DNA of 64,000 nucleotides from an uncultured Actinomycetes bacterium (GTDB lineage: Bacteria; Actinomycetota; UBA4738; HRBIN12). The DNA lies in assembly GCA_963728665.1 (NCBI GenBank), contig CAVSLG010000018.1, forward strand, positions 43,762 through 107,761, written 5' to 3'. The notes under the pieces are model-generated. The model had not been told where the DNA came from and did no database searches. It was given only the letters and a program-made list of their open reading frames with translations. Of this stretch, positions 6,802-64,000 are shown one piece after another (positions within the stretch are counted from its first letter, which is position 1; every line of letters starts with the position of its first letter). Made by a program: the position numbers and the translations under genes.

Positions 6802-6897
6802 CCGCTCGGCTCGGTGCCGCGGGTCCTCGTTCGCAGCGCTCGTCCAGCTCGTCGAGCCGGCCGACGTTGACCACTTGGCACTCTCATGGCTATCCTG

Positions 6898-6924
6898 TTA
6901 GCACTCACCCAGCGTGAGTGCTAA
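6898..6924 (+). promoter_or_regulatory. CIRCE operator (HrcA binding site) upstream of groES
   Basis: Perfect inverted repeat TTAGCACTC-N9-GAGTGCTAA, 47 bp upstream of the groES ATG. Confidence 0.85.
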
Positions 6925-6970
6925 CGAGACTTGGGAACGGACCGCTGACCGCAAGGAGGAGACGAGCACC

Positions 6971-8989
<2,019 letters not shown>

Positions 8990-9000
8990 CGAACGATCGT

Positions 9001-9061
9001 GGCGGGTCTCGGACCCGCCCGCTGAGAACCCACGGTGGGGCGGGCTCGTGCCCGCCCCACC
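9001..9061 (+). terminator. Two GC-rich stem-loops immediately after the groEL stop; candidate intrinsic terminator
   Basis: ggcgggtc-tc-ggacccgcc (9001-9019) and ggtggggcggg-ctcgtg-cccgccccacc (9034-9061). There is no U-tract, as is common in high-GC actinobacteria. Confidence 0.45.
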
Positions 9062-9091
9062 GTGCGTTCCCGCGGGAATACACTCGACGAG

Positions 9092-10150
9092 ATGTTCGAG
9101 GAGCTGATCCGCGGATGGGACGGCGAGCACGTGGTCGTGCGGTTCGACGAGCCGTCGGGAACCTGGATGCTGGTCGGGGTGCATTCCACCGTGCTCGGTC
9201 CGGCGATGGGCGGCACCCGCATGAAGGCGTACCGCTCGCCCGATGAAGGCCTCCACGACGTGCTCCGCCTCTCGCAGGCGATGACGATGAAGCAGGCGGC
9301 CGCCGGTCTCGACTTCGGCGGCGGCAAGGCGGTGCTCGCGGTACCGGCCGTGCCCCCACCCGGCTCGTCGCAACGTCGTGAGCTGCTGCTCCGCTACGGC
9401 GACCTCGTCGAATCGCTGGGTGGCGCGTACGTGACGGCCGCCGACATGAACACCGGTGAGGCCGACCTCGACGTCATCGGCGAGCGCACGATGCACGTGC
9501 TGGGCCGTTCTGTCGTGTGCGGAGGGTCGGGAAGCTCGGCCGGCGCGACGGCCCTGGGAGTGTTCCACGGCATCCGGGCGAGCGTGCGCCAGGCGTTCGG
9601 TGACGAGGGCCTCTCGGGTCGGCATGTGCTCGTGCAGGGGGTAGGAGCCGTCGGGTCGCGCCTCGCAGAGCTCCTGCACGATGCCGGAGCACAGCTGACG
9701 ATCGCCGACCTCGACAACGATCGCGCGACGGCGCTTGCGGCATCGCTCGAGGTCGAGTCGGCGCCAGCGCACCACGTGTTCGACACGGAATGCGACGTGT
9801 TCTCGCCCTGTGCCACCGGTGGTCTGCTCTCGGCCGAGTCGATCCCCTTGCTTCGGTGCCGGGTGGTGGCGGGTGCCGCGAACAACCAGCTCGCCACGTC
9901 GTGGGACGCCGATCGTCTGCACACCCGCGGCATCCTGTACGCGCCCGACTTCGTGATCAACGCTGGCGGCGTGATCCACCTCGTGGGCTACGAACGGCTC
10001 AGTTGGGATGAGGCGCGCATGACGGCCCGGGTCGCCGGCATCGGTCAGACGCTGACCGACCTGTTCCGGCGGGCCGAGGCCGAGGGCATCACGACCGCAG
10101 CAGCCGCGGACCGGCTCGCGACCGAACGCATCGAGGCCGCTCGCGGCTGA
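9092..10150 (+). CDS. Glu/Leu/Phe/Val dehydrogenase family enzyme (leucine/valine dehydrogenase-like)
   Basis: MFEELIRGWDGEHVVVRFDEPSGTWMLVGVHSTVLGPAMGGTRMKAY...AAGLDFGGGKAVL... Rossmann motif VQGVGAVGSRLAELL. The length of about 350 aa fits Leu/Val dehydrogenases. Confidence 0.8.
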   Translation: MFEELIRGWDGEHVVVRFDEPSGTWMLVGVHSTVLGPAMGGTRMKAYRSPDEGLHDVLRLSQAMTMKQAAAGLDFGGGKAVLAVPAVPPPGSSQRRELLLRYGDLVESLGGAYVTAADMNTGEADLDVIGERTMHVLGRSVVCGGSGSSAGATALGVFHGIRASVRQAFGDEGLSGRHVLVQGVGAVGSRLAELLHDAGAQLTIADLDNDRATALAASLEVESAPAHHVFDTECDVFSPCATGGLLSAESIPLLRCRVVAGAANNQLATSWDADRLHTRGILYAPDFVINAGGVIHLVGYERLSWDEARMTARVAGIGQTLTDLFRRAEAEGITTAAAADRLATERIEAARG

Positions 10151-10718
10151 TCGCGCGGTGGGAGAAGGGGTTTCTCCGGGCGTCCGATGCCGAATGGATC
10201 CGGCCGCGCCGACACGTTGCAGACGAGGGGCCTCTCGACCAGGGGTCGCCGCCTCCGGTCGCGGGGCCTCCGCGCGCGCCCGCACCGGAAACGCGATCGA
10301 CATCCGTTCGGCAAACCCCGCGCGGTGTGCAGCGCGGTCAGCGACGCCGGAGGTGCGGGACGGCCGCACGGCCGCACGCCGTCATATCGACGAACAGGAA
10401 CTGGGTCGAGACCCTGGCATCGTCGCTCGATCGCGTCGGGCGAAGGAGGCCGGTCGACTTCACCGCGGTGAGCGCGAGCTCCTCGACCGGTCAACGGCCC
10501 GCATCGGTCCCTGAGGGTTGCATCGGCAGACATGAGGGCCGTAGGGTGATTGATCACGGCTGAGGTGGTGACGGAGGCGGATCCGCGCTCGGGGCAGCAG
10601 TTCGGTGGTAGGCATCGAGCAGGTGACGAAAGAGCACGCCTAGTGGCAACCTGGGGTAGGTGATCCGGAGCTCCGCGTTCGGGATCCTGCGCGAGCCGAG
10701 GTGAAGAAGGGGTAACTC

Positions 10719-18405: not shown

Positions 18406-19413
18406 TCACGTCAGCGAGCAACCGATGCCGAGCCGCCGGCTTTCGTCTCGAACCAACTGAAAGGTCTCCGAGGAGGTCGGCGAGTGCACGGTTCGGTTCA
18501 TCGAACGACCCTGCAAGAAAGCGCGCGCTGCGGCCGACATGGGGTCGTAGCTGTGGGCGTTCTTCGTCGGGTAGCTCTTGAGTGCGTGGTCCGGCAACCC
18601 GAGGAAGGTGAGCACGTCGCGGTAGGCACGCTGGGGTTGAGCGAAGAAGTCGCCACTGTCCACGATGAGCATCTGGCTCCGCGAGAGATGGCTCAGCCAT
18701 CGTCGCAGTTGGTCGACGTATATCCCGCGGGCGACGTACGAGTGGTGTTGATGCTCTTCACTATGGTAATTGGGATCCGCGGACAATCGCTCGGCCTCCC
18801 CTGCGAGGCGTTCACCCTCCATCCTCAATGCGTCCTCGAACGGCAACGTCTCGTAGCCTCGTTCCACTTCGTGCCGATACTGGGAGTAGGCCTGCGCAAC
18901 CGGGTCTCGGAGCATCACGATGATCCGCACGTTCGGGAGTGTACTCGCGACCCTGGGGGGAACGTTCGGGTGGAGGAGGTAGTAGGGGCTGCTCTCTCCC
19001 GTGAGCGTTCGATGGTCGGCTCGTCTCGACACGAGCGACCTGTATCGACGGGTTGGGAAGTGGGACGCGTACCAGCTGTCGCCTCGTTCGTAGTTGACGT
19101 CGAAGTAGTGAACGCCCTTGCAAAGGACAGCCGGAACGACGGCGGGGTGCTGCGACAGGTAGGTGTACATCGACGTGGTCCCGCAGCGCTGTGCGCCGAT
19201 GATGAGGAAGTCCGGCAGGTCTCGGTATCGATGCGTCGCGGCTGTGATGCCGCGAGAAGCCCTCCAGAGGGTTCTATGCGCTCCTTTCAGGATGCCGGTC
19301 GGCAGGCTCATGTTCCGAGGGACTCGTACCGGCCTTCGTCGGCGAGCGGTACCGTTACGCTGGGAGTCGAACCCCTCAGACGTTCCCTCACGATCGTGCG
19401 CAACACCCGCCAT
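18406..19413 (-). CDS. PAPS-dependent carbohydrate sulfotransferase (second copy; intact ORF)
   Basis: LPDFLIIGAQRCGTTSMYTYL (5'-PSB) and RIIVMLRDPVAQAYSQY (3'-PB). A likely start is M at about 19311 (MSLPTGILKG). Confidence 0.7.
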   Translation of the reverse strand: MAGVAHDREGTSEGFDSQRNGTARRRRPVRVPRNMSLPTGILKGAHRTLWRASRGITAATHRYRDLPDFLIIGAQRCGTTSMYTYLSQHPAVVPAVLCKGVHYFDVNYERGDSWYASHFPTRRYRSLVSRRADHRTLTGESSPYYLLHPNVPPRVASTLPNVRIIVMLRDPVAQAYSQYRHEVERGYETLPFEDALRMEGERLAGEAERLSADPNYHSEEHQHHSYVARGIYVDQLRRWLSHLSRSQMLIVDSGDFFAQPQRAYRDVLTFLGLPDHALKSYPTKNAHSYDPMSAAARAFLQGRSMNRTVHSPTSSETFQLVRDESRRLGIGCSLT

Positions 19414-19428
19414 CCATCGGGGATTGCT

Positions 19429-20268: not shown

Positions 20269-21230
20269 CTATGGAGCGGGGCCCGGAGCGTGATCCGTCG
20301 AGGATGAGGCTTCGTATCCGAAGCGGCGCAAGAGCGGCCAGGTCAGCAGGCTCACGTATCGCTGCTCCCGACGAGTCAAATCCGTCTTCCATCCCTCGTC
20401 CGCTTTGAGCTCGACCGATCCGCGGGCGAACCTCACCGGATTGCCAGAGATGTTGTGCACGACCGACAGCTGGACCCGTCGATCACCGTGGAAGGGAGGC
20501 ACCGCGTCGGCGATGCCGGTCCATCGCAGGATCTGGGCAACACGCAGGGCCGGATCGGCCACGAAGTCTTCGTGCCGCATCGTCATGCAATGTGACGACC
20601 TTCCCCACTCCGCCTCGATCAACGAACCTCGGTACAGCCAGGTGAGGGATGACCTGGTGAGCCCGTGTGAGTCCATCGTGCCGGCTACCCCAGCCTCGTA
20701 TCGAACACGCTTCTTCAAGCTCGAAGCGACCCCCCGGGGGTCCCGGACGAGGTGAAGGAAGTAAGGCCTCAGGCCGGGGATTCCCTCCGCGATCGCGGCA
20801 TGCCATGGCGTCTTCGAAGCGTCGACCAGAACCGTGCTCGGGGTGGCCGGCCGCTCGGTAGAGCGGTCCAGCAGTTGACGGTAAGCATCGGCTGCCGGTG
20901 CATCGAGTCGATCCACGCGGTATCCGCCTCTTCCGATCATCGTGTCCCCAAGCGGGCCATCGCGCGACGACCTCACGGTGAACCAAGCTCGATCCGCGCC
21001 GAAAGCACTGGTGGCGATCGGGGTCCAGAACTAACACCGGCTGAATTGCGCCTCACACCCGCAGGTCATATCGAGCCCGAATCCCGGCTCCCAGATGTTG
21101 TTGACCTCACCGAGCGTGACCACTCCGGGCGTGCTTCCGAGCACGTTCGCTAGGATCGTGGAACCGCTCCGGTCCCAGCCGAGGATCAGAGGACCTCGCG
21201 TGCTCACCACGGAGGGACCGCCGAAGGTCG
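20269..21230 (-). CDS. Stf0-like sulfotransferase (third sulfotransferase; trehalose/sugar sulfotransferase family-like). Frameshifted near 21030.
   Basis: N-terminal PLILGWDRSGSTILANVLG (RSGST P-loop-like 5'-PSB of Stf0/PF09037; frame 21031..21486). C-terminal LHLVRDPRGVASSLKKR...HCMTMRHEDFVADPALRVAQILRW (frame 20269..20976). Confidence 0.5.
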
Positions 21231-43182: not shown

Positions 43183-44958
43183 TCAGGGCCCGAGGTAGGA
43201 GTCTCGTGAGACGCCTGGCTCGTCTGTCCAGAAGGTGAAGGAGGACGTGGCCCTGCCGGAGCGGCCGATCTGCACCACATCGACTGCCTGCCCGATCCGC
43301 TGTCCAGAACGAGACCGCACGATCTCGGATGGGACCTGAATGTCCCCGTCAAACACCATCATTTCGATCGTCCCTGAGACGTGATCCGATGACCATTCGA
43401 TACGCAGCCAGCCGCGAGTCCAGATCGGCTCCGAGGTTCTGAGAACCACCTCTCCCTTTCGATCGCGGGCGCGGAGGTCGCCTCCAGGGGTGATCTCGAT
43501 AGAGACGCTTGTCGCGCCCTTGTGTTTGGCCCGAACGAGTTGGAGCGGTTCCTTTGGCGCTCGAGGAAGCCAGACGTAGAAGCGTCCGAACCAACGATCG
43601 CTGACTCCGAAGGAGTGTCCGTATTCGTAGAAGGCATTCTCGCCAGGGCCGGCCTCGTGCTTGGCGGCAAGCCCGGAGTGCGCACGTCTCGAGTCGTAGA
43701 TCAAGCTCGCCCCGCGCTCGGCCTTGACCGAATCAAAGGCTGACCCGCTGGCGCCACCGCTGTTCGCGCGCGTGATGCCTTCCCCTGGCGACCCTCCGTC
43801 GAGTGAGTTGGTGAGGGGGCTAGGGCTAGGGCTAGGGCTAGGGCTAGGGCTAGGGCTAGGGCTAGGGCTAGGGCTAGGGCTAGGGCTAGGGCTAGGGCTA
43901 GGGCTAGGGCTAGGGCTAGGGCTAGGGCTAGGGCTAGGGCTAGGGAATGGCCTTCCACTCAGATGACCATCGGCCCCCATCTGCGCGTAGCCGGCCATCG
44001 ATGAGGATGAGCTGTCGGTGATCCAGGGCCTGCCGTCCTTGATCTCGTCGAAGTAGATCAGTCCCTTGAGCTCGGGCCAGGTCTTGGCGGTCGCGAGCGC
44101 GTCGATGATCCACTGGCCCTTGCGACCGGGGACCGCCGGATCTTCCTGCGCTCCCCACTCCACCGCCATCCAGGGCTTGGCGTGTCGAACGGCGAAGTCC
44201 TGGGTCGGTTGGAAGACGGTCTGGAAGGAGTTCCACGTGGATCCGGGCTTCGTGGGGTAGAAGTTGTAGCCGTCGCTGCCGATCAGGTCGACGTGGGCGT
44301 CGCCCGGGTAGTAGTCCTCGATCGGCTTGCCTGAGCGAGGATCGAACGTCCAGGCCATCATCGTCCAGACGAACGCGACGTTATCCACGCCCTGTGCGCG
44401 GAAGACGTCGACCACGTGCCGGAACGCGGCGGCGTACTCGGCGGGGGTGCCCCAGGTCGCGAGGTCGTCCTCGGGCTCGTGATGCAGAGAGAGGTAGACG
44501 GGCACCCCGAACGCCTCGATCGCATCCGCCCTCGCGATGATCGCCGCGTCTTCGGCCCCAGAGGCGATCCTGGACCACGTGATCGCCTGACCGTTCTGGC
44601 GCTGCGCCTTCCAGTTCAAGAACGGGATCCGCCCCTGGCCCACCGTCCAGGCCTCGTGGGCCCCGGGGAAGTTCGAGTCCCACTTGTAGTACTGATGGTC
44701 GATCGCGAACCGACGCCCGATCTGGGACTCCACCCGCACGATCGCGTCGGCGCGAGACTCACCGGCACGGGGAGCGACCCAGCTCCCGAAGTAGGCGCCG
44801 GACGAGGGGATGAGGACGGCGGGAGGACCGACGGGAGCGGCGCTCACCGCCGTCGGGGCGACCAGGCCCGAGGCGAGCGCCATGCACGAGAGTAGCGCGA
44901 CGACGGTCTTCCCCAGCGAACCTGCAGAGAGCCGTGGAATGGACGAGGGGGTTGCCAT
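43183..44958 (-). CDS. Secreted GH26-like glycoside hydrolase (cassette copy C), then a (Pro-Ser)21 linker and a C-terminal beta-sandwich (lectin/ConA-like?) domain
   Basis: Signal peptide TVVALLSCMALASGLVAPTAVSA. The catalytic domain is identical to copies B and D. A PSPSPS... run precedes a 190-aa C-terminal domain (WFGRFYVWLP...WLRIEWSSDHVSGTIEMMVFDGD...). Confidence 0.7.
   Translation of the reverse strand: MATPSSIPRLSAGSLGKTVVALLSCMALASGLVAPTAVSAAPVGPPAVLIPSSGAYFGSWVAPRAGESRADAIVRVESQIGRRFAIDHQYYKWDSNFPGAHEAWTVGQGRIPFLNWKAQRQNGQAITWSRIASGAEDAAIIARADAIEAFGVPVYLSLHHEPEDDLATWGTPAEYAAAFRHVVDVFRAQGVDNVAFVWTMMAWTFDPRSGKPIEDYYPGDAHVDLIGSDGYNFYPTKPGSTWNSFQTVFQPTQDFAVRHAKPWMAVEWGAQEDPAVPGRKGQWIIDALATAKTWPELKGLIYFDEIKDGRPWITDSSSSSMAGYAQMGADGHLSGRPFPSPSPSPSPSPSPSPSPSPSPSPSPSPSPSPSPSPSPSPSPSPLTNSLDGGSPGEGITRANSGGASGSAFDSVKAERGASLIYDSRRAHSGLAAKHEAGPGENAFYEYGHSFGVSDRWFGRFYVWLPRAPKEPLQLVRAKHKGATSVSIEITPGGDLRARDRKGEVVLRTSEPIWTRGWLRIEWSSDHVSGTIEMMVFDGDIQVPSEIVRSRSGQRIGQAVDVVQIGRSGRATSSFTFWTDEPGVSRDSYLGP
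43817..43942. repeat. Perfect hexanucleotide microsatellite (GGGCTA)21, which is (TAGCCC)21 on the coding strand. It encodes the (Pro-Ser)21 linker.
   Basis: Read directly from the sequence: 126 bp of uninterrupted GGGCTA units. Confidence 0.95.
43975..44805. repeat. About 0.83 kb GH26-like cassette DNA repeat, copy C
   Basis: See copy B. Confidence 0.8.
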
Positions 44959-45234
44959 GCGGAGTGCCTCCCTCGCCTGCCTGGCGGGGACGGGACAACC
45001 TCGCATCCCCCTGAGTCAGGCAGACGAACCAGTCGGGGTATGAATCGGCGTGCGGGCTGGGGATGCTTGAGTGGGGCGATAGGGCGCTCTTTGGACCCCC
45101 CATCCAGGGGACAGACATGAGCGAGATGAGGCTGGACGATGTCTGGCAGGGACGCACGGTAGGACGTTTCCACGTGTGAGACGGAGAGAAGACGACGTCG
45201 CCTACCGATTTCCGCGAAGGACGGCACTACTGTT

Positions 45235-45710: not shown

Positions 45711-47639
45711 TCAGTTCGTTGAGCAGCCCGATGATGCGAACGCCACTGCAGCGTCGAACATCTCCCAAGCAGCAGTCGTGAAACTCACCGGTCCGTCTCG
45801 GAACACTGAAGACGACAAGCGACAGCCCCTCGCGGGACCGCCCCCCACCAACAGATCGCCAGCTTGGTAGACGAATGTGGTGGGCTTGCCGGCCACGGTC
45901 GCGATAACGTCCGCCGAGGGGCGAGGAAGGCCGAACGACTTCGTCCTGTTCTCCGGGGTCGTGAGGACCGTTCCCCGTTTGCCAGCGGCGAGCACGTGAG
46001 TTTCGTTCTCGACGACGATCGAGGGCGACGACACCGTGCCGTACTCGACGCTCGGGCATCGCCCTCGTCATCAGCATGTCGTCCAGGGCGTAGGGTTTCG
46101 CGACCCACACCGGATGCGGCACATCGCGCAGCTTCGAACCCAGGACACGGCTGTCGATCGTCGACATCACCATCACGAAGGCCGCGCCATCCGCATCGGA
46201 TGCCTGCACCGCGTTGTCGTCGACGGCCGCCACTGTGTATCCGCTGACCGAGAGTCGATCGACGACGGCAACCTCACCCCGGATCAAGCGGCTCGGGACT
46301 CCGACCACCATGACGACGTTCCCCAGCTCGGTCTCCACGATGACTTCGGCGCTATCGGACGCGGATTGGCCGAGTCGTGTCAGTCGCCAACACCGATACA
46401 GTTCGCAGGTCCATCGGTGGCAGTGGCAGCGTTCCACTCGAGGGTCCACCCGTCGGTGCCGTCCGAGTCAACTCCGATCAGGACGCCGTCGACGTAGAAA
46501 TCGACTCGCTGCACGGCCACGTCGTCAGCCGCGTCGGCGCTGATCGTTACCGTACCGCTGAGGATGTCACCGTCAGCCGGCGAAATCAGCGAGACGGTCG
46601 GCCGCTGGTCAGGAACGGGCACCGGACTTGGGCTCACGCTCAGGTACGCATCGGCCCCCATCTGCGCGTAGCCGGCCATCGATGAGGATGAGCTGTCGGT
46701 GATCCAGGGCCTGCCGTCCTTGATCTCGTCGAAGTAGATCAGTCCCTTGAGCTCGGGCCAGGTCTTGGCGGTCGCGAGCGCGTCGATGATCCACTGGCCC
46801 TTGCGACCGGGGACCGCCGGATCTTCCTGCGCTCCCCACTCCACCGCCATCCAGGGCTTGGCGTGTCGAACGGCGAAGTCCTGGGTCGGTTGGAAGACGG
46901 TCTGGAAGGAGTTCCACGTGGATCCGGGCTTCGTGGGGTAGAAGTTGTAGCCGTCGCTGCCGATCAGGTCGACGTGGGCGTCGCCCGGGTAGTAGTCCTC
47001 GATCGGCTTGCCTGAGCGAGGATCGAACGTCCAGGCCATCATCGTCCAGACGAACGCGACGTTATCCACGCCCTGTGCGCGGAAGACGTCGACCACGTGC
47101 CGGAACGCGGCGGCGTACTCGGCGGGGGTGCCCCAGGTCGCGAGGTCGTCCTCGGGCTCGTGATGCAGAGAGAGGTAGACGGGCACCCCGAACGCCTCGA
47201 TCGCATCCGCCCTCGCGATGATCGCCGCGTCTTCGGCCCCAGAGGCGATCCTGGACCACGTGATCGCCTGACCGTTCTGGCGCTGCGCCTTCCAGTTCAA
47301 GAACGGGATCCGCCCCTGGCCCACCGTCCAGGCCTCGTGGGCCCCGGGGAAGTTCGAGTCCCACTTGTAGTACTGATGGTCGATCGCGAACCGACGCCCG
47401 ATCTGGGACTCCACCCGCACGATCGCGTCGGCGCGAGACTCACCGGCACGGGGAGCGACCCAGCTCCCGAAGTAGGCACCGGACGAGGGGATGAGGACGG
47501 CGGGCGGGGGAGCCGCCCGCGATGCCCCGGAGAACAGGCCTTGAGTGAGCGCGAGGGAGACGAGGGTCGCAGACAGGAAGAGTGCGAAAGACGCTCGCGG
47601 TCTCATCGACCGCGGCTCGCGACGTTGCGTGGAACTCAT
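45711..47639 (-). CDS. Secreted GH26-like glycoside hydrolase (cassette copy D) followed by an Ig-like domain and CTM. The C-terminal part has frameshifts (possible pseudogene).
   Basis: Signal peptide ASFALFLSATLVSLALTQG. The catalytic domain is identical to B and C. Then Ig-like (PTVSLISPADGDILSGTVTISADAADDVAVQRVDFYV...). The CTM is split between frames 45691..46449 (...LIRGEVAVVDRLSVSGYTVAAVDDNAVQASDADGAAFVMVMST...) and 45711..46034 (...GCRLSSSVFRDGPVSFTTAAWEMFDAAVAFASSGCSTN). Confidence 0.6.
46656..47486. repeat. About 0.83 kb GH26-like cassette DNA repeat, copy D
   Basis: See copy B. Confidence 0.8.
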
Positions 47640-48109
47640 GCGTGTCCCTCCCTTGCCGCCTCAACGCTGGAGGCGAGCTTTGAGGATGGCCCCGTGGGGC
47701 AGATCAGGGTGGCGATCGCCACCGCGTGATGTCCTGGGTTCGCGTGGGAAGCGCCCTCAAGCTCTCGAGATCGGGTGAGCTCGTGGGGCGACGATGCGGC
47801 GGCTACGGGAGTTTCGGCGCCACCATTCTCGTAGCCTTTGCCCGCGGTCGGTCCGCGAACATATGCTCGACCTCCGATAGAGAGGATGCTTCGGTCGTCG
47901 GGATGCGCATGGATCCGCCCCCTTCCCGCCGTCCTACTCTGACGGCTCTCTTGCCGAGCGCCTACCCGGCCGGCTTGGTCGCCGTGTCCCCGACAAAGGG
48001 AATCCCACCGACACCATCGTGCGTGCCCGGTGGGAACTCCCCAACCCTACACAAGAGGAAGGAATCGTCAAACCAGCGCTGAAGCTCTCGTGGCCGCGTG
48101 ACGACGCGG

Positions 48110-48565
48110 TCAGACGAACGGCTTCTCCTGGCCCCCGAGACCCATGCCCACGAGCAACCCGGCGCCCAGCCCGCCGTTCACGACCGCGAGCGTCCAGAAC
48201 GGCCACGCGTCGGCACCCTCGGGTACCCCGAAGACCGCGTTGATCGCGAAGACGGTTGCGGTGCCGACCTCGAGCACGGCGAACGCCCACGACCACCACC
48301 AGAGCTCGTCGATCTTCTGGGCGACGAGCACCATCAACAGCGCCAGCACGACTCCCATCACTGCGGCAGCCCGGACCCACACGTAGTCGGCGAGCACGGG
48401 CTGGCCGAAGAGGCCTTCCAGCACCCAGCGGGGGAACAGCCCGACCGCCACGCTCCACACGAGCCACAGCGCGGCCTGCACCTTCAGCAACCGTCGCAGA
48501 AGCTTCACGAGCGTCGTCCTTTCCCGGGTGGGCCGGGTTTCGAGCGGTTGGTAGGATACGCGCAC
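48110..48565 (-). CDS. Hypothetical small integral membrane protein
   Basis: 151-aa ORF with 3-4 hydrophobic helices (ALWLVWSVAVGLF, AAAVMGVVLALLMVLVA, WSWAFAVLEVGTATVFAINAVFG, WTLAVVNGGLGAGLLVGMGL). Confidence 0.45.
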   Translation of the reverse strand: MRVSYQPLETRPTRERTTLVKLLRRLLKVQAALWLVWSVAVGLFPRWVLEGLFGQPVLADYVWVRAAAVMGVVLALLMVLVAQKIDELWWWSWAFAVLEVGTATVFAINAVFGVPEGADAWPFWTLAVVNGGLGAGLLVGMGLGGQEKPFV

Positions 48566-48630
48566 CGCGGAGCACCCCTTCGCTCAGCGCGTCGGCGCGC
48601 GGCTTCCGCACCGTTTCCGTCTCTGAGAGG

Positions 48631-48821
48631 ACGCAGCATGCAACGAGCGCTCAAGTACCGAAGGGGTAGCGCATGATCGATGCGCTCAAGTACCGAAGGG
48701 GTAGCGCATGAACGACGCGCTCAAGTACCGAAGGGGTAGCGCATGATCGACGCGCTCAAGTACCGAAGGGGTAGCGCATGAACGACGCGCTCAAGTACCG
48801 AAGGGGTAGCGCATGATCGAT
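48631..48821 (+). repeat. Tandem 35-bp repeat (about 5.5 copies) reiterating the Shine-Dalgarno, ATG and first codons of the downstream gene
   Basis: Unit GCGCTCAAGTACCGAAGGGGTAGCGCATGA(T/A)CGA(T/C). Copies start at 48647, 48682, 48717, 48752 and 48787. The last copy supplies the real ATG at 48813. Each earlier ATG opens a 12-codon mini-ORF M(I/N)DALKYRRGSA whose TGA overlaps the next ATG (ATGA). Confidence 0.9.
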
Positions 48822-50210
48822 GGACCCAGGGTCGCGGTCATCGGCCTCGACTGCGGTGCGCCGAAGCTCCTGTTCGAGGACCTCGCCGACGAGGTGCCGA
48901 ACCTGCGGAAGATCTTCGCCAACGGCATGTACGGCGACCTCGCGAGCATCACGCCGCCGATCACCGTGCCGGCGTGGGCATGCGCGATGACCGGCAAGAC
49001 CCCCGGTCAGCTCGGCATCTACGGCTTCCGCAACCGCAAGGACACGAGCTACGACGGCCTGCAGGTCGCGACGTCGCTCTCGGTGAAGGAGCCGGCCGTC
49101 TGGGACGCGCTCGGGGGCGCCGGCAAGCGTTCCCTGTTGATCGGGGTGCCGCCCGGGTTCCCACCTCCGAAGGAGTTCCCCGGCTGGCGCGTGGCCTGTT
49201 TCCTCACGCCGCCGAGCGCCGATCGCTACGCGTTCCCCGCCGAGCTCGAGACCGAGATCTCAGAAGAGCTGGGCGAGAACGATTACATCTTCGACATCCC
49301 GAACTTCCGCCAGCAGGGCCCCGACTTCGTGATGGACCAGATCTTCAAGATGACGGAGCGGCGGTTCCAGGTGGCGAGGCGCCTGATCAAGAACAAGCCC
49401 TGGGACTTCTTCATGATGGTCGAGATGGGCCTGGACCGGCTGCATCACTGCTTCTGGCAGTTCTACGACCCGCAGCACCCGCTCTACGAGGCCGGCAACA
49501 AGTACGAGACGGCGTTCCACGACTACTACCGCTTCCTCGACCAGCAGGTGGGCACCCTGCTCGAGGTGCTGCCGGAGGACGTCGTCACGATCGCGATGAG
49601 CGACCACGGCGCGCGCCCCATGATGGGGGGCCTCTGCTTCAACGACTGGCTGATCCAAGAGGGGTACCTCGTCCTGAAGGAGCCGGTGCGCGAGATCACA
49701 CCGATCGCGAAGGCCGACATCGACTGGAACCGCACGGTGGCATGGGGCGACGGCGGCTACTACGGGCGCTGCTTCCTGAACATCAAGGGCCGCGAGCCCA
49801 ACGGCATCCTCGAGCCGGCGCAGTACGAGACGCTGCGCAACGAGATGATCGCGAAGCTCGAGGCCCTGCCCGGCCCCGACGGCCGCCCGATGGGCACCAC
49901 GGTGCACAAGCCGCAGGACGTCTACTCCGAGGTCCGCGGCGTGGCGCCCGACCTGATCGTGTACTTCGGCGACCTCGATTGGCGCTCGGTGGGTGCCGTC
50001 GGCAACCCCAGCATCTACACGTTCGAGAACGACACGGGTACCGACGGCGCCAACCACGACCGCACCGCGTTCTTCTCCATGGTCAACCTTCCCGGGCAGG
50101 CGATGGGCCGTGTGGAGGGCATGAACCTGGTCGACGTCGGCCCGTCGATCCTGTCCCTGTACGACATCGAGGCGCCGGCCGGCGCCGTCGGAAGGAGCTT
50201 CCTGCAGTGA
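48813..50210 (+). CDS. Type I phosphodiesterase / nucleotide pyrophosphatase (NPP) family enzyme of the alkaline-phosphatase superfamily. Cytoplasmic, with no signal peptide.
   Basis: VAVIGLDCGAPKLL (metal-site Asp) and PPITVPAWACAMTGKTPGQ, which matches the NPP PTxTxPNHxxxxTG nucleophile-Thr motif. MSDHGARP (HG metal ligands). Intact 465-aa ORF. Confidence 0.8.
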   Translation: MIDGPRVAVIGLDCGAPKLLFEDLADEVPNLRKIFANGMYGDLASITPPITVPAWACAMTGKTPGQLGIYGFRNRKDTSYDGLQVATSLSVKEPAVWDALGGAGKRSLLIGVPPGFPPPKEFPGWRVACFLTPPSADRYAFPAELETEISEELGENDYIFDIPNFRQQGPDFVMDQIFKMTERRFQVARRLIKNKPWDFFMMVEMGLDRLHHCFWQFYDPQHPLYEAGNKYETAFHDYYRFLDQQVGTLLEVLPEDVVTIAMSDHGARPMMGGLCFNDWLIQEGYLVLKEPVREITPIAKADIDWNRTVAWGDGGYYGRCFLNIKGREPNGILEPAQYETLRNEMIAKLEALPGPDGRPMGTTVHKPQDVYSEVRGVAPDLIVYFGDLDWRSVGAVGNPSIYTFENDTGTDGANHDRTAFFSMVNLPGQAMGRVEGMNLVDVGPSILSLYDIEAPAGAVGRSFLQ

Positions 50211-50833
50211 GCGAGCAGCAAGGGTTCACCGTCTGGTTCACGGGCCTCTCGGGATCGGGCAAGTCCACGATCGCCGAGATGCTCTTCCACGAGTTCCAGG
50301 CACGAGGATTCAAGACCGAGATCCTCGACGGCGACGAAGTGCGCAAGAACCTCTCGAAGGGCCTCGGGTTCTCGAAGGAGGATCGCGACACCAACATCCT
50401 GCGCATCGGGTTCGTCGCGAACCTGCTCACCCGCAACGGCGTGGTGACGATCTGCTGCCCCATCAGCCCCTACAAGGAGACGCGCGACGCGTGCCGCGAG
50501 CAGATCGGCGAGTTCGTCGAGGTCTACGTGCACGCGACGGTCGACGAGATCGCCGCGAACCGCGATCCCAAGGGCCTCTACAAGAAGGCGCTGGCGGGCG
50601 AGATCACCGGGTTCACCGGCGTCGACGACCCTTACGAGGTGCCCGTGGATCCGGAGATCACTGTCGACACGCTCTCGCAGACCCCCGAGGAGTCGCTGCA
50701 GCACGTGCTCACCCGGCTGAAGGAGCTCGGTCGTCTCGAGGACGACGACGTGCACGTCACGGGCGACCGGGTGCACTCGGGCCTCACCGACCTGCGTGTC
50801 AGCGAGGCCGGCACGGTCGTCAAGGAGCACTGA
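50207..50833 (+). CDS. cysC: Adenylylsulfate (APS) kinase
   Basis: GTG start overlapping the upstream stop (GTGA). SD gaaggag 10 nt upstream. P-loop VWFTGLSGSGKSTIA. The full length is APS-kinase-like (...DGDEVRKNLSKGLGFSKEDRDTNILRIGFVA...). Confidence 0.9.
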   Translation: MSEQQGFTVWFTGLSGSGKSTIAEMLFHEFQARGFKTEILDGDEVRKNLSKGLGFSKEDRDTNILRIGFVANLLTRNGVVTICCPISPYKETRDACREQIGEFVEVYVHATVDEIAANRDPKGLYKKALAGEITGFTGVDDPYEVPVDPEITVDTLSQTPEESLQHVLTRLKELGRLEDDDVHVTGDRVHSGLTDLRVSEAGTVVKEH

Positions 50834-50834
50834 C

Positions 50835-52253
50835 TCAGGGGTCGGGGACCGCGGCGACCCGCAGCGCGAGCTCGAGGTGCGCCGACAGGAAGTGCGGGGC
50901 GAGGAATCTGCTGCGTACCCGCTGGCGGGCGCCGTGACCGATCTCGACGGCGAGCTGTTCGTCGCGCAGCAGCGTCGAGAGCGCCTCGCCGAACGCGGGC
51001 AGGTCGGTGGGGTCGACGAGCAGGCCGCTCTTGCCGTGCACGATCTGCTCGGCGATGCCGCCGAGCCGTGACCCGACGACCGGGCGCTCCTTCCACATCG
51101 CCTCGGTCACGGTCAGGCCGAACCCCTCGGCAAGGCTCTTCTGCACCACGACGTCGGCGCGTCGCTGCAGCGCGTTCACGACCACCGCGTTCTCGGTGAG
51201 GTCGTGCACGGGAAGGCTCGCGAGATGGGTGCGAGCTCGGTCGTGGGGGAGCAATCCCTGCCACGCCGTGCTCACCTGGGCCAGCACCTCCGCCCCTTCA
51301 GGGTCGTCCGACACCGCGTCGACCTGGGGTCCGGCGAGCACGAGGTGTGCCCCCGTGTCGAGCGGCACCTCGGTCGCGAAGCCCGTCAGCACGCCGATCG
51401 GATCCTTCAGCCGGTCCCACCGCGAGACCTGGACCACGAGTGGGGCCGTGGCGGGCACGGGCGCCTCCTCGAGCATCGTGGCGGCTCGAGCGACACGGAT
51501 CGTGCTCCCGTCGGCGAGCGGCACGGTCGGATCGCCCACGGGCGCCTCGATCACGCCGGCGGCAGCCAGCACGGCCTCGACCGTACGGTTGTCGATCGGC
51601 ACGTTCTTCGGCGCGCTGGCATCGATGCAGGGCGGGATGACCGAGACGCGGGAAGGATCGAGCCCGTCCCATGCGTACACCGGCCGCGTGAACACCGTGG
51701 CGGCGGCGGCTCGCGCGTCGTCGAGCAGGAACGCCCAGGCGTCACGAGCGAGATCGTTCGCGACGTCGATGCCGACGTGGCAGACCCAGATCACGTGCGC
51801 CCCGCGCGACACGAGCTGCGACGTGAGTCCGACGGTCTGGGGGTCGTGCAGCACGACCACGTCGCCCGGTCGCACCAGGGCCTCGATCGGGCCGCGCTCA
51901 CGCTCCAGCGCTGCGTCGTAGACGGCGCGCTGCTCGGGCCCGAGCGGTCCGCCGTCGCCCGCGGCGCCGTGCAGCCGGTTGTGGATGCGCTTGGTGACCT
52001 CGAAGAACGAAGGATCGCCCTCGATCACCATCCACCTCGTATCGACGTCGGCGGACACCACGTACCCGAGCAGGGCGTGCAGCAGCTCGGCGACGCCGCC
52101 GCCCTCGGAGGTGGAGTTCACGTGCCACCACGTTCGTCCGCGGAAGCCCTCTGCGGCATCGGCGAGCGCTCGCTGATAGCGGAGCAGGTCGCCGGGCTCG
52201 ATCAGGTCGGCGAACCCGTCGGGGCGCTGCGGTGCGATCGGAACCTCGTGCAT
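50835..52253 (-). CDS. GT4 family glycosyltransferase (trehalose synthase TreT-like)
   Basis: N-terminal WHVNSTSEGGGVAELL (the NST.FGGGVAE motif of TreT-like enzymes). C-terminal GT-B signature EGFGLTVTEAMWKERPVVGSRLGGIAEQIVHGKSGLLVDP. Intact 473 aa. Confidence 0.75.
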   Translation of the reverse strand: MHEVPIAPQRPDGFADLIEPGDLLRYQRALADAAEGFRGRTWWHVNSTSEGGGVAELLHALLGYVVSADVDTRWMVIEGDPSFFEVTKRIHNRLHGAAGDGGPLGPEQRAVYDAALERERGPIEALVRPGDVVVLHDPQTVGLTSQLVSRGAHVIWVCHVGIDVANDLARDAWAFLLDDARAAAATVFTRPVYAWDGLDPSRVSVIPPCIDASAPKNVPIDNRTVEAVLAAAGVIEAPVGDPTVPLADGSTIRVARAATMLEEAPVPATAPLVVQVSRWDRLKDPIGVLTGFATEVPLDTGAHLVLAGPQVDAVSDDPEGAEVLAQVSTAWQGLLPHDRARTHLASLPVHDLTENAVVVNALQRRADVVVQKSLAEGFGLTVTEAMWKERPVVGSRLGGIAEQIVHGKSGLLVDPTDLPAFGEALSTLLRDEQLAVEIGHGARQRVRSRFLAPHFLSAHLELALRVAAVPDP

Positions 52254-60045: not shown

Positions 60046-63000
60046 TCAAGGGCAGGGTTCGACGTGGAGATACTGGCGGCACTCCTCGTCGGAGAGTTGC
60101 CTCGTCACCTTCGTGCCGGCGATCGCGATCAGCTCGTCGAGATCGAGCTCCCAGACGCGGACGAGGCCGTCCGGCGCGGCCGATGCGAGCCGCCGTCCGT
60201 CGGGGCTGAACGCGATGCCCGAGACGAGGTACGTGTGGCCCCGCAGGACCAGTTGCTGGATCCCCTGCTCCGGGTTGAACAGTCGGACGGTGGCGTCCAT
60301 GCCGGAGGTCGCGATCCGCCCGCCGTCCGGGCTGTAGGTGATGTTCTCGATGCTTCCGGAGTGCGCGGGGAACCGGAGCACGCGCTCGAGGCCGGGCACG
60401 GAGAAGATCTCGACGATGCCATCGAAGCGCGCCACGGCGAGCTCCGACCCCGTGGGATCGAACGCCACGCCCGTCGCCCCGATCGGCTCGATCGAGCCCT
60501 CGATCGCCTCGCCTTCCCAGTCCCAGATCGACACGTGGTTCTGTTGCGGCTTGGCGATGACCGACACGGCGGTCGCGATCCTGCTCCCGTCAGGGCTGAA
60601 CGTGACATCGTCGATCTGCCTCCAGCTGCCCTCCTCGACCAACCTTGCCACCTGCTCTCCCGTCGCATCGAGCACGGTCGTGCTCCCATCCCATGTCCCG
60701 ACGACCAGGTGCTCGCCGTCGGGGCTCCAGTCGGCGGCCGAGATCTCCTCCCCGATGGGTACCTCGAACACGGCGTCCCCCGTTCCGACATCCCACGCGG
60801 TGATCGTGTCGCTGAAGAGGCGAACGGTCGCGATGCGCGATCCGTCGGGACTCACCTCGATCAGCCAGACGGCCCGAGGGGATCCTGCGCCGGGACCGAT
60901 CGTCGCAGCCTCACCCTCGCGCACGTCCCATAAGGTGACGGATCCCTCGTCGCTCGGTGCGACGATCCGTCCGTCCGGCAGGTACGCGACATCGACGGGA
61001 GCCAGCTCGTCGGTGGGCAGGTTCGCCACCTCGGCATCGCCGTCGATGGTCACGTCCCAGATCTTGACCGCAGTGATCGCCGTATCGCCGGTCAGGACCC
61101 CGTTGCCGTTGGGAGAAAACGCGGCGAACGTGCCCGACCTCGTCTGCTGCGCCGAGAGCGTCAGCACCTCGCGGCCCACCGCGTCGTCGATCTCCCACAC
61201 CCTGGCGGTCCCGTCGCTGCCTCCGGTCACGAGCCGTTTCGAGTCGCGTGCCCAGTCCACCGTCACCACGACACCGGTGTGACCGACGAGCTCCGTCTCC
61301 AACCGCTCGGTCGCTGCCTCCCACACGCGTATCGACGAGTCGTTGGCCCCGGTCGCGATCCACCGACCGTCCGGGCTCCACGAGACGGAGTTGATCGTAT
61401 AACTGTGCCCCCGGAGGTCGAACGCGCGCTCGCCGGTGGCGACGTCGAAGACGGCTCCGACAGGGGTGTTGCCCATCCCGACCGCGACGTGCTCGCCATC
61501 TGGGCTCAGGGCGGTGTCGAAGGGATTGTCGGGCAAGGAGATCGTGCGAACGATCTCGCCGGTCGACGGATCGACGATGCGGGTCTTCCTCTCGGATATC
61601 CATGCCGCCGCGAGGAGCGATCCGTCGGCGTCGAAGGACTGCCCGAGCACCGGTCCCTCCCCCTGGATCACTGACACCTGGTCGCCGGTTGCCGGATCCC
61701 AGATGCGGAGAGCGCCGTCGTCACCTCCCGTCGCGAGGAGTGATCCGTCGGGCGAGAAGCGGACGTCGTTGACGTCGGGGTCGTGGCCCTCCCACGACCG
61801 GACGATCTCGCCGGTCGATGCGTCCCTGAGCTCGATCATGCGGCTGTCCTCGGGGCCTTCGGTGACGAACACGCCCTCAGGGCTCCAATCGAGGTTGCCG
61901 CCGGCGCCCGACGCCGTGAGCACGATGCGGGAAGCGGTCACGGCACTGTGCAGAGCTTCTTCCGCCTCGGGGAGGACCGTGCCGTCGACCGACCGCGTTC
62001 GATCGATGGATTCGAGCGCGAGGAGGATGCTGCGCTCGGGATCGACCTCGAGACTGGCGACGGACGCCGCCGCGAGCTCGCGAGCCTGCGCGGTCAGCTC
62101 CTGGTCCTGGGCCTTCCGCTGCTGGCTCATCGCGAAGAGCGTCAGGGCGCCGGCCACGACCGCTGCGACCGTCAGCACGGCGACGATCGTGCGCAGCCGG
62201 CGCACCGACCGTCGTTCGAGCTCCCGTTCGTGGTCCTGGCGCGTTCGCTCCTCGACCTGCACCCGGTCCCGCTCGGCGGCGGCCGCGTCGAGGAACGCGC
62301 TCTCCTCGGGGGTGAGCGCCAGCGGCGACCCGCCACGCCACGCCTCGATCTGCTCGAGGCGCGATCCCGAGATCAGGAACGACGGATCGCGGTCGGCGTC
62401 GGCCCAATCGCGCGCCGCCGCAGCGAGCCGTCGCTCGGTGCGTATGTCCTCCCGCGCGGCGTCGATCCATCGTCCGAGCCGTCGCCACGCGGAGAGCATC
62501 GCCTCGTGCGCCAGCTCGATCGTCGGTTCGCCCGTGCGGACATCGCGGTCGAACGTGAGCTGGCGCGAGGTTCCATAGGTCTCGATCACCCACGACATCG
62601 CCTGCTGGTCGAGGTCGAGCGAGGTGATCTCGGCTCGCGACACCCGTCGACGCGTGTCCTCCGTGCCTTCGCCGAGCGCCACCAGGTGCAGGAACAGCTG
62701 TCGCGCCGCGTCCTTCCCGGCCGCGTCGAGCCCGTCGTAGATCTCCTCCGCCCGGCGACCGAGCGCGCCCGAGACCCTGCCGATCTCCCGATAGGAGCCG
62801 AGCGTGATCATGCGACCATCCCGCCGCTCGAACAGCTCGGTCAGCGCGTACTCGAGCAGGGGGAGCGCGCCCGGTTCCTCGGCGACGTCGGCAAGCATCG
62901 CGGCCACGAGCCCGGTCTCCAGGGAGACGTCGGCCCGTTCGGCCGGCTTCGTGATCACCTGCTCGAGCTGCTCGGCCGAGAGCGGGACCAGCGACTCGAC

Positions 63001-64000
63001 GCGCGCCGCGAAGAGGTCCGCGAATCCGCGGTAACGAAGGGGCCGATCGTAGAAGTCCGCTCGCAGCGTGACGATCACCCGTAGGCGGCTGTGGGGATCG
63101 CTCACCGCGGCCTCGAGGCTACCGAGGAAGTGCCGGCGGGCATCCTCGTCGTCAACGAGGGTGAAGACCTCCTCGAACTGGTCGATCACGAGCACGAGCT
63201 CGGAGCGGTCGGACGGCAGGACCCGGAGCACGGCTCGGTGGAGCCCGCGCTCATCGGATCGGAGCTGCTCGATCAGGCTCGGTGGTGGGTCCATGGCGAC
63301 CTTCAGCAACGCCGCCTCGAGCCCGTCGAGCGGGTACGGGCCCGGGAACATGTCGGCGATCGGCCAGGTATCAGATCCGGCGATCGCGCCACGACGCAGG
63401 GCCGGGATCAACCCTGCGCGGACGACCGACGACTTCCCGCTGCCGCTCGGTCCGACGAGCGCGAGGAACCGCGTCTGCGACAGGCGATCGACGAGCTGCT
63501 CGATCAGGTCGTTGCGTCCGTGGAAGTCGGGGGCGTCGCCCTCCTCGAACGCGCGCAAGCCCTTGTAGGGGTTCGCCACGATCGCGCCCGGGCCGGCTGG
63601 TTGGAGCCGGGTCCCCGACGCGCCCAGCGCCCGCCGGAAGGCGACGTCCTCGGCCGCGTCGTCGGCTTCCGCCTTCAGTCGCATCACGTGGACCGGGTGA
63701 GCGATCCCCTTGAGCTGCACCGTACCCCGATCGACGGACGCGACGCCGTCCACCTTGCGGGCCAGATGCACGACCTCGCGGCTGGCGAGGATCTCCCCGG
63801 GTCCCGCGATCGCGCACAGGCGCGCGCCGAGGTTGAGGGCGCCCCCCCGATAGCCCCCCTCGACGGAGACCGCTTCGCCGGCGTCGAGACCGATGCCCAC
63901 CGGAAAGGGAAGCGATGGATCGGCGACGGTCTCCTCCACGAACCGGCGCTGCAGGTCGATCGCCGAACGGATCGCCTGCCGGGTCGACGTGAAGACGCAG
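60046..64000 (-). CDS. Adenylyl/guanylyl cyclase domain - STAND (NACHT/NB-ARC-like) NTPase - single TM helix - WD40 beta-propeller protein. The 5' end extends beyond the window.
   Basis: C-terminal half of a class III cyclase domain (FPVGIGLDAGEAVSVEGGYRGGALNLGARLCAIAGPGEILAS). Walker A LALVGPSGSGKSSVVRAGL and Walker B LVLVIDQFEEVF. TM RLRTIVAVLTVAAVVAGALTLFAM flanked by R-rich N-side. At least 10 WD40 repeats (ALRIWD, SIRVWEA, ARVWE, VRVWE...). 1297-aa intact ORF to 63939; the upstream part probably lies beyond 64000. Confidence 0.8.
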   Translation of the reverse strand, partial: CVFTSTRQAIRSAIDLQRRFVEETVADPSLPFPVGIGLDAGEAVSVEGGYRGGALNLGARLCAIAGPGEILASREVVHLARKVDGVASVDRGTVQLKGIAHPVHVMRLKAEADDAAEDVAFRRALGASGTRLQPAGPGAIVANPYKGLRAFEEGDAPDFHGRNDLIEQLVDRLSQTRFLALVGPSGSGKSSVVRAGLIPALRRGAIAGSDTWPIADMFPGPYPLDGLEAALLKVAMDPPPSLIEQLRSDERGLHRAVLRVLPSDRSELVLVIDQFEEVFTLVDDEDARRHFLGSLEAAVSDPHSRLRVIVTLRADFYDRPLRYRGFADLFAARVESLVPLSAEQLEQVITKPAERADVSLETGLVAAMLADVAEEPGALPLLEYALTELFERRDGRMITLGSYREIGRVSGALGRRAEEIYDGLDAAGKDAARQLFLHLVALGEGTEDTRRRVSRAEITSLDLDQQAMSWVIETYGTSRQLTFDRDVRTGEPTIELAHEAMLSAWRRLGRWIDAAREDIRTERRLAAAARDWADADRDPSFLISGSRLEQIEAWRGGSPLALTPEESAFLDAAAAERDRVQVEERTRQDHERELERRSVRRLRTIVAVLTVAAVVAGALTLFAMSQQRKAQDQELTAQARELAAASVASLEVDPERSILLALESIDRTRSVDGTVLPEAEEALHSAVTASRIVLTASGAGGNLDWSPEGVFVTEGPEDSRMIELRDASTGEIVRSWEGHDPDVNDVRFSPDGSLLATGGDDGALRIWDPATGDQVSVIQGEGPVLGQSFDADGSLLAAAWISERKTRIVDPSTGEIVRTISLPDNPFDTALSPDGEHVAVGMGNTPVGAVFDVATGERAFDLRGHSYTINSVSWSPDGRWIATGANDSSIRVWEAATERLETELVGHTGVVVTVDWARDSKRLVTGGSDGTARVWEIDDAVGREVLTLSAQQTRSGTFAAFSPNGNGVLTGDTAITAVKIWDVTIDGDAEVANLPTDELAPVDVAYLPDGRIVAPSDEGSVTLWDVREGEAATIGPGAGSPRAVWLIEVSPDGSRIATVRLFSDTITAWDVGTGDAVFEVPIGEEISAADWSPDGEHLVVGTWDGSTTVLDATGEQVARLVEEGSWRQIDDVTFSPDGSRIATAVSVIAKPQQNHVSIWDWEGEAIEGSIEPIGATGVAFDPTGSELAVARFDGIVEIFSVPGLERVLRFPAHSGSIENITYSPDGGRIATSGMDATVRLFNPEQGIQQLVLRGHTYLVSGIAFSPDGRRLASAAPDGLVRVWELDLDELIAIAGTKVTRQLSDEECRQYLHVEPCP

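Follow-up and report, generated by a model that had tools for sequence, protein, structure and literature searches.

What role does a phosphodiesterase-like enzyme play when its gene overlaps that of an adenosine 5'-phosphosulfate (APS) kinase? The question is raised by a 64,000-nucleotide stretch of DNA from an uncultured Actinomycetes bacterium (GenBank assembly GCA_963728665.1, contig CAVSLG010000018.1, positions 43,762 to 107,761), referred to here as the window, which has 66.8% guanine plus cytosine (GC). In it, the gene of a protein of the nucleotide pyrophosphatase/phosphodiesterase (NPP) type is joined to cysC, the APS kinase gene of 3'-phosphoadenosine 5'-phosphosulfate (PAPS) synthesis. 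The original prediction for this locus had tied the NPP both to the PAPS pathway and to three sulfotransferases in the window; conserved operons and fusions across phyla bear out the first tie, and the second proved weak. The operons and fusions described below make the NPP-like enzyme a conserved, dedicated accessory third component of a bacterial sulfate-activation module. Our tentative reading of its function, to which a probability of roughly 40% is given, is that it would remove inorganic pyrophosphate (PPi), or another phosphoanhydride by-product, and so pull the formation of APS and PAPS. No description of an association of this enzyme with sulfate activation was found in the searchable literature.

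The NPP-cysC pair

The pair and its junction comprise the following features.

48813-50210, plus strand: NPP-like protein of the alkaline phosphatase (AlkP) superfamily (PF01663, COG3379-type), a metalloenzyme of 465 aa (Pfam, AlphaFold2 model, profile alignment)
50190-50197, plus strand: Shine-Dalgarno sequence GGAAGGAG of cysC, within the 3' end of the NPP gene and 9 nt upstream of the GTG (direct reading)
50207-50833, plus strand: cysC, canonical APS kinase of 208 aa, with a GTG start and a C-terminal tail of about 30 aa (PF01583, NF002059, TIGR00455)

The 465-aa open reading frame (ORF) matched PF01663 over profile positions 1-342 of 342 (E 3.2e-38; 132.6 bits against a cut-off of 23). CysC was recognized by PF01583 (E 7e-60, 201.9 bits), TIGR00455 (208.9 bits against 138.7) and NF002059 (245.3 against 244); it carries the APS kinase motifs GLSGSGKST, LDGD, ISPY and KGLYKKA, and its best match in the PDB was the kinase domain of the Aquifex bifunctional SAT/APS kinase 2GKS (E 2.6e-55). 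Direct reading confirmed the predicted junction: the GTG of cysC (50207-50209) overlaps the TGA of the NPP gene (50208-50210) as GTGA and has a Shine-Dalgarno sequence of its own. No alternative in-frame start lies upstream of the P-loop in the cysC ORF. The window's clade was defined as Actinomycetota metagenome-assembled genomes with an NPP of at least 65% identity, and 25 GTDB loci belong to it. The CysC alignment begins 0-69 nt past the end of the NPP alignment in 24 of these (the gap in the remaining one, L030, is 361 nt), and because the two alignments nearly abut in homologous loci, the tight junction is conserved and not due to chance. The leader of upstream ORFs (uORFs) described below, the NPP gene and cysC would be expressed as a single translationally coupled unit.

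Conservation of the operon

More than 6785 homologs of the 465-aa protein were found at E<=1e-10, the best 120 of which are about 465 aa long and 72-94% identical to it, and a library clustered at 50% held 7399 representatives of the family at the same threshold. GTDB was scanned with one genome per species, which returned at least 579 relatives, and Sat (ATP sulfurylase), CysC, PHP, pyruvate kinase (PK) and sulfotransferase domains were placed by coordinates on the best 80 loci, with flanks of 10 kb. Fusions and long spurious ORFs in high-GC DNA partly obscured an all-against-all clustering of the neighbouring ORFs, and the mapping of domain coordinates was used instead. Two of the 80 loci, which held only a truncated NPP, were set aside, leaving 78 with an intact homolog. 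These loci were picked by likeness to the query, and the adjacency frequencies given here describe the query's part of the family rather than all of PF01663.

The NPP gene adjoins cysC in 48 of the 78 loci, sat in 25 and one or the other in 53, and loci with such adjacency span Actinomycetota, Chloroflexota, Verrucomicrobiota and Marinimicrobia. The arrangement in the window's clade is NPP-cysC (24 of 25 GTDB loci). A sister actinobacterial clade, with NPPs of 52-56% identity, shows sat-NPP-cysC-PHP on every contig of sufficient length; in Chloroflexota a Sat::NPP fusion of about 863 aa is followed by cysC; one verrucomicrobial locus has Sat::CysC and then NPP, and one Marinimicrobia locus NPP-cysC. 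Three metagenomic contigs with close homologs retain the order of NPP and APS kinase, and sat-NPP pairs without cysC occur as well (L049, L068). In two of the three contigs, L001 and L004, the pair lies among housekeeping genes (tsaD, groES/EL, gdh), and no sulfotransferase was called near it. The module amounts to an operon or fusion for sulfate activation to which an undescribed third enzyme has been added.

The predicted absence of cysD, cysN and sat from the 64 kb was borne out: phmmer searches of the whole window, as distinct from the genome, gave no match with the Sat domain or with CysD, CysN, CysH, CysI, CysQ or Ppa of E. coli as queries. Neither sat nor PHP lies within 10 kb in the 25 GTDB loci of the window's clade. 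Among all loci searched, Ppa likewise had no match at E<1e-3; the CysQ query gave no hit. The cysC gene does lack a sat nearby, as had been pointed out; the sister clade has sat immediately upstream. In a neighbour-joining tree the NPP-cysC clade of the window is sister to the sat-NPP-cysC-PHP clade, and the two clades share their place in the chromosome, downstream of groEL and upstream of guaB-like genes; in the window's clade the pair sits between groEL/gdh and guaB. We infer that sat-NPP-cysC-PHP is the ancestral arrangement in Actinomycetota, and on the simplest reading the window's lineage lost sat and PHP from the operon or moved them elsewhere. The missing sat looks like operon reduction in one clade and not like an oddity of the pathway.

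Fusion proteins

Fusions were read from the longer proteins among the top 150 library representatives; those with PK domains were also placed in loci.

P0128: PUA_2, ATP-sulfurylase and NPP domains
P0149: APS_kinase and NPP domains
P0209: NPP, pyruvate-kinase barrel, PUA_2 and ATP-sulfurylase domains
P0244: NPP and PK domains
P0247: NTP_transferase and NPP domains
P0158: NPP and family 2 glycosyltransferase (GT2) domains
L085 7459-10914 and L086 4297-6657 (also L087, L088): NPP::PK::Sat and NPP::PK fusions

The best 120 matches of P0128 were essentially all of Sat::NPP architecture, at 52-85% identity, and are named just "ATP sulfurylase" by their sources; one Sat::NPP fusion lies on a 5.2-Mb contig, where an APS kinase gene follows it. 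The NPP::PK(::Sat) loci are low-GC glycan clusters with no cysC and no sulfotransferase Pfam match. By joining the NPP to an ADP-consuming, ATP-forming domain, in two independent architectures and where cysC is absent, they bring up a different function, in which the enzyme would be an adenylate salvage phosphotransferase or mutase that converts by-products to ADP (AMP + PPi -> ADP + Pi, or pAp -> ADP, pAp being 3'-phosphoadenosine 5'-phosphate), with the ADP then recharged to ATP by pyruvate kinase or by the cell. Phosphomutases acting via phospho-Ser/Thr intermediates do occur in the AlkP superfamily. We nevertheless consider salvage very unlikely: its basis is these two architectures, the chemistry is purely speculative, and simple recycling of ADP or provision of ATP would explain the PK domain equally well.

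PK and CysC look mutually exclusive beside Sat and NPP, which poses the question whether the PK-like domain is a kinase substitute or an ADP recycler. A C-terminal tail, R-L-x-x-L-G-Y, recurs on the NPP homologs P0124, P0147, P0175, P0201 and P0267 and on 75-aa proteins encoded just upstream of the NPP::PK fusions (L085 6908-7138; L086 4028-4255), which resemble ribbon-helix-helix regulators by eye. This tail may act as a peptide for interaction or regulation that the two kinds of protein share.

Fold and active site of the NPP-like enzyme

A single-sequence search of the PDB with the NPP-like protein gave nothing better than E 0.04, and XacNPP, the NPP of Xanthomonas, was reached by the family profile only. 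In the family-profile alignment to its structure 2GSN, Thr51 (in PPITVPAW) aligns with the XacNPP nucleophile T90. The metal-ligand positions D13, D208, H212, D264, H265 and H415 are kept across clades, as is N74, which has R73 and R75 on either side. The window NPP therefore has the Thr nucleophile, the two-metal ligand set (D, D/H, D/H, H) and the active-site Asn, and is predicted from these residues to be an intact two-metal, Thr-nucleophile phosphoryl-transfer enzyme. Val52 follows Thr51 where the profile alignment gives Phe in XacNPP; that residue, Phe91, is taken by us to form, with a Tyr, the nucleotide base clamp of XacNPP.

The AlphaFold2 model (predicted local distance difference test, pLDDT, 95.4) has its first beta-strand from residue 7, carrying the metal ligand D13, which leaves no room for a signal peptide, and the protein is accordingly modelled as cytoplasmic. 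The Thr nucleophile and the cytoplasmic location foreseen in the original prediction both agree with these results. The top Foldseek matches of the model were ENPP1/3, SPAP and XacNPP, at a template modelling (TM) score of about 0.55 and 14% identity, and no homology to Ppa, CysQ, PHP or Sat was seen. Within the NPP/alkaline-phosphatase superfamily, the enzyme forms a branch of its own that is strongly conserved.

The sat-less, sat-linked and fused groups have 118 alignment positions in common, all catalytic ones included. Because of this conservation the sat-linked and sat-less NPPs are probably isofunctional, and the catalytic core of the sat-less clade appears unchanged, with no sign of alteration in the aligned residues. 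Among the few clade-specific changes are the fixed G412, D416 and R417, which flank the ligand H415 (DGANHDR in the sat-less clade; DEANHAE or DDANHAQ in sat-linked proteins).

These changes next to a metal ligand bear on the idea that in the window's clade the NPP has replaced ATP sulfurylase, making APS from ATP and sulfate by way of a covalent Thr51-AMP. NPPs cleave ATP to AMP and PPi through a Thr-AMP intermediate, and sat, immediately upstream in the sister clade, is absent within 10 kb from all loci of the window's clade. Everywhere else, however, a bona fide Sat is present alongside the NPP or fused to it, and sulfurylase activity is therefore not its ancestral role. The sat-less clade has the same catalytic core, water would compete with sulfate for the Thr-AMP intermediate, and in Actinomycetota cysDN or sat commonly lies in a separate operon. 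Replacement of Sat is accordingly held to be highly improbable.

Proposed role in sulfate activation

The PHP gene that follows cysC in the sister clade encodes 295 aa, with its best PDB match to 2YB1 (E 1.2e-27), which we take to be Cv1693. Cv1693 is a pAp hydrolase and stands for one of the three classes of pAp phosphatase known (PMC8268124). With a PHP of this type, the sister-clade operons already encode sulfurylase, kinase and pAp phosphatase. The sulfate-activation pathway has been defined as ATP sulfurylase, APS kinase and inorganic pyrophosphatase (PMC3149026), and in stramenopiles and haptophytes an inorganic pyrophosphatase is fused to ATP sulfurylase, shifting the unfavourable equilibrium (PMC2275785). 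Since sat, cysC and a pAp phosphatase are already present, the removal of PPi is the sole step unfilled in the operons. In the reading that we favour, the NPP-like enzyme would hydrolyse PPi, the by-product of sulfate adenylylation; this would pull the very unfavourable equilibrium of ATP sulfurylase forward, so that APS kinase makes PAPS, and the enzyme would be a non-homologous counterpart of the pyrophosphatase that is fused to ATP sulfurylase in some eukaryotes. Such a role would be analogous and not homologous, because the protein has no homology to Ppa. It would fit the loci, which gave no family-I pyrophosphatase match in any search, the NTP_transferase::NPP fusion P0247, whose partner is another type of PPi-producing enzyme, and the sat-NPP pairs without cysC (L049, L068).

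Several points weigh against PPi as the substrate. We know of no AlkP/NPP-fold enzyme specialised for it, and most bacteria already have an efficient housekeeping pyrophosphatase. The protein has about 100 invariant residues, many of them aromatic, and a large cap domain; this conserved surface and the cap suggest a substrate bigger than PPi, for example a nucleotide. The window's clade dropped sat and kept an NPP overlapping cysC, which fits the APS, PAPS or ADP of APS kinase better. A second NPP paralog, deeply divergent, occurs in some operons (L081, from 12172; L082, 12099-13463; L084, 3891-5246), and about 25 homologous loci without a sulfur link hold arrays of NPP-like and Thr-type sulfatase-family paralogs. 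Such arrays of NPP-like and sulfatase-family proteins, with a subtilase, were seen in Thermodesulfobacteriota and Dadabacteria (L053, L057 and L079).

A nucleotide-sized substrate would suit a hydrolase of pAp, analogous to CysQ, or of APS, PAPS or ADP, with the purpose of relieving inhibition of APS kinase and the sulfotransferases or of controlling the PAPS pool. NPPs act on nucleotides, the protein has an NPP-like fold and catalytic set, and its many conserved aromatic and arginine residues would suit an adenine polyphosphate ligand. The NPP gene stays joined to cysC where sat and PHP are gone, a CysC::NPP fusion exists, and neither CysQ nor PHP is found nearby in the window's clade. Against this, the Cv1693-type PHP gene lies in the same operon as the NPP gene in 11 GTDB loci and in L085, so that NPP and pAp phosphatase are not complementary; pAp, which the original prediction had listed among the possible substrates, is made less likely by this co-occurrence. 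Destroying APS or PAPS next to the enzymes of their synthesis would serve no purpose, Val52 stands where XacNPP has its presumed clamp residue Phe91, and sat-NPP pairs exist without any cysC. On balance such a hydrolase is possible but rather unlikely.

A transferase would account for other features of the loci. The operons of the sat-NPP-cysC-PHP type hold all that sulfation calls for except a consumer of PAPS, and L035 has no canonical sulfotransferase within 10 kb. By analogy with the AlkP-fold phosphoethanolamine and phosphoglycerol transferases, the NPP could itself be that consumer, a new AlkP-fold enzyme in which Thr51 passes a sulfuryl or phospho group from APS or PAPS to an acceptor. 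The glycan clusters L085 and L086 combine Sat with the NPP-like protein and lack a sulfotransferase Pfam match and cysC; L085, not L086, also has a PHP protein and a Thr-type sulfatase-like protein. In the latter, the only sulfatase-like protein that was read, TAPSL replaces CxPxR, with Thr at the position of the formylglycine-forming Cys of sulfatases. The NPP::GT2 and NTP_transferase::NPP fusions and the occurrence of NPP paralog arrays alongside sulfatase-family proteins point the same way. However, the full two-metal NPP/AP ligand set favours attack on phosphorus over sulfur, and the identity of 72-94% within the clade and about 50% across phyla, together with the housekeeping position, argues for a universal small substrate rather than a variable acceptor. 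Canonical sulfotransferases are present in the window, and no precedent was found in the searchable literature. We regard a transferase consuming activated sulfate as quite unlikely. The wider proposition that the COG3379-type NPP carries out a previously unknown sulfuryl- or adenylyl-transfer reaction of either kind, as an APS/PAPS transferase (which would be a sulfotransferase of a new class) or as a Thr-AMP sulfurylase in place of Sat, is also unlikely, and the removal of PPi is retained as the working proposal.

Sulfotransferases and accessory island

The features in question lie on both sides of the NPP-cysC pair.

3757-4845, plus strand: sulfotransferase-domain ORF (PF13469 and/or PF00685)
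18406-19428, minus strand: sulfotransferase-domain ORF (PF13469 and/or PF00685)
20269-21030, minus strand: sulfotransferase-domain ORF (PF13469 only, E 9.5e-8)
10192-48108, no strand assigned: accessory island of 37.9 kb, between gdh and the NPP-cysC module (blastn against L005)
50835-52253, minus strand: TreT-like family 4 glycosyltransferase (GT4), a convergent neighbour (PF21269, E 1.4e-38; PF00534)

Pfam confirmed the three sulfotransferases predicted at 3.8, 18.4 and 20.3 kb. Their proposed coupling to the NPP is another matter. In blastn comparisons, window positions 6100-10191 correspond to L005 219-4334 and positions 48109-48682 to L005 4301-4874, and the island between them is absent from L005, whose NPP is 97% identical. 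The sulfotransferases are accessory cargo, because two of the three lie in this island; moreover, most homologous NPP loci have no sulfotransferase within 10 kb. The coupling is not conserved and the link of NPP-cysC to the three sulfotransferases is weak, and it is plausible that they consume PAPS, in which case they would do so from outside the conserved module. In 2-kb windows the GC content of the island is 61-68% (mostly 63-66%) and that of the backbone 66-72%. By Pfam, the cargo also includes GH26-like (glycoside hydrolase family 26), phytase-like, malectin and GSDH-type proteins, many Big_7 proteins, GT2s and an epimerase, and the island may be concerned with a sulfated glycan or the cell surface.

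The ORF at 20269-21030 had been labelled Stf0-like and, with the TreT-like GT4, taken to suggest a sulfated trehalose. The Stf0 label was rejected, as the ORF matched PF13469 alone, with no match to the Stf0 family in Pfam and none to a PDB chain at E<=1. Sulfated trehalose was rejected with it, there being neither an Stf0 nor a TreT equivalog match. The GT4 does have a TreT N-terminal domain; it matches the TreT_GT1 N-terminal and GT1 domains only, and scores 197 bits with the TreT equivalog against a cut-off of 775. Nor is it a conserved part of the module, being downstream of NPP-cysC in 5 of 29 clade loci (the window, L005, L013, L025 and L027).

Two GH26-like ORFs, at 43183-45006 and 46380-47639 (both on the minus strand), are nearly identical over about 330 aa of their N-terminal part, with a direct DNA repeat (43948-44247 and 46629-46928, 97-100% identity), and one copy has a long (PS)n linker. 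The pair represents either a recent duplication or an assembly collapse. An nSTAND1 NTPase with WD40 repeats, at least 1317 aa long, runs off the end of the window (60046-63999, minus strand) and is adjoined by a sortase and a PcrA/UvrD helicase.

Upstream leader and divergent gene

Three features precede the NPP gene.

48110-48508, minus strand: membrane-like hydrophobic protein of 132 aa, GTG start at 48508, no Pfam family (phmmer)
48548-48562, plus strand: motif TTGGTAGGATACGC, extended -10-like, in the divergent intergenic region upstream of the operon (conservation)
48638-48815, plus strand: five leader mini-ORFs of 12 codons, MQRALKYRRGSA and then MIDALKYRRGSA and MNDALKYRRGSA in alternation (translations, Tandem Repeats Finder)

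The mini-ORFs are generated by a 35-bp tandem repeat (Tandem Repeats Finder: 48647-48820, period 35, 5.0 copies, 96% matches) and follow the pattern M[QIN][RD]ALKYRRGSA. The TGA of each overlaps the next ATG as ATGA, and the final ATG is the NPP start. L005 has one copy of the uORF, L006 two and more distant members of the clade none; the repeat may be a translational leader of variable copy number, or else an assembly artefact. In many members of the clade (L001-L027) the motif TTGGTAGGATACGC recurs at a distance of about 75-90 nt before the NPP ATG, and from this conservation it is probably the -10 promoter region of the operon. A search of the NPP 5' region against Rfam gave no RNA family.

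The divergent 132-aa protein had phmmer matches in 27 loci, all within the sat-less clade of at least 65% NPP identity, and 132-aa genes with no Pfam match were also called in L001, L002 and L004. This protein turns up where sat and PHP disappear.

Implications

PAPS synthesis is a textbook pathway for which ATP sulfurylase, APS kinase and a generic pyrophosphatase were thought to suffice. The novelty lies in a widespread, strongly conserved NPP-like enzyme placed between the PAPS-making enzymes or fused to them, and the findings point to an undescribed helper step in PAPS synthesis. If the enzyme is a pyrophosphatase, it would be a dedicated, non-homologous one by which the unfavourable sulfurylase equilibrium is overcome with no need of the CysN GTPase; otherwise, sulfur activation would include a new reaction. 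Thousands of these sequences, from at least four phyla, are named just "alkaline phosphatase family protein" by their sources, and "sulfate adenylyltransferases" of about 860 aa are two-enzyme fusions; the family deserves better annotation. In practical terms, its members are candidates for better enzymatic production of PAPS.

Comparison with known systems

The NPPs (XacNPP, 2GSN; ENPP1/3) share with the window enzyme the core AlkP fold, a Thr nucleophile at the same motif position, all six metal-ligand positions and an Asn about 23 residues after the nucleophile. The window enzyme differs from them in its low identity (about 14%, TM score about 0.55), large inserted helical and beta cap regions, Val in place of Phe beside the nucleophile and Arg residues around the Asn, and it is predicted to be cytoplasmic rather than secreted and is encoded in sulfate-activation operons. 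PafA and SPAP (PhoK) likewise have PF01663-type folds, and SPAP is among its top structural matches. They handle phosphomonoesters with extra Lys/Arg residues; unlike the window enzyme, they are secreted phosphate scavengers, and no sequence relation beyond the fold was seen (PafA, E 0.6 in the profile search).

The window CysC is nearest to the Sat-associated type of kinase, and the logic of fusion and operon is that of the Aquifex SAT/APS kinase 2GKS and the PAPS synthases, with the difference that the window kinase is coupled to an AlkP-fold enzyme and has no sulfurylase nearby in its clade. The pAp phosphatases CysQ, NrnA (DHH) and Cv1693 (PHP) are, like the NPP, accessory phosphohydrolases of the PAPS cycle (PMC8268124), but the window NPP is homologous to none of them, and their role in the sister-clade operon is filled by a Cv1693-type PHP. 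The pyrophosphatase::ATP sulfurylase of algae and the triad of ATP sulfurylase, APS kinase and inorganic pyrophosphatase in the Entamoeba mitosome also have a third enzyme physically joined to the pathway (PMC2275785, PMC3149026). The fold of the window enzyme is unrelated to theirs, it has no similarity to family-I pyrophosphatases, and pyrophosphatase activity is only predicted for it. Its proposed task, the removal of PPi to pull APS formation, is nonetheless the same, and by this analogy the pyrophosphatase fused to the algal ATP sulfurylase would be its closest functional analogue.

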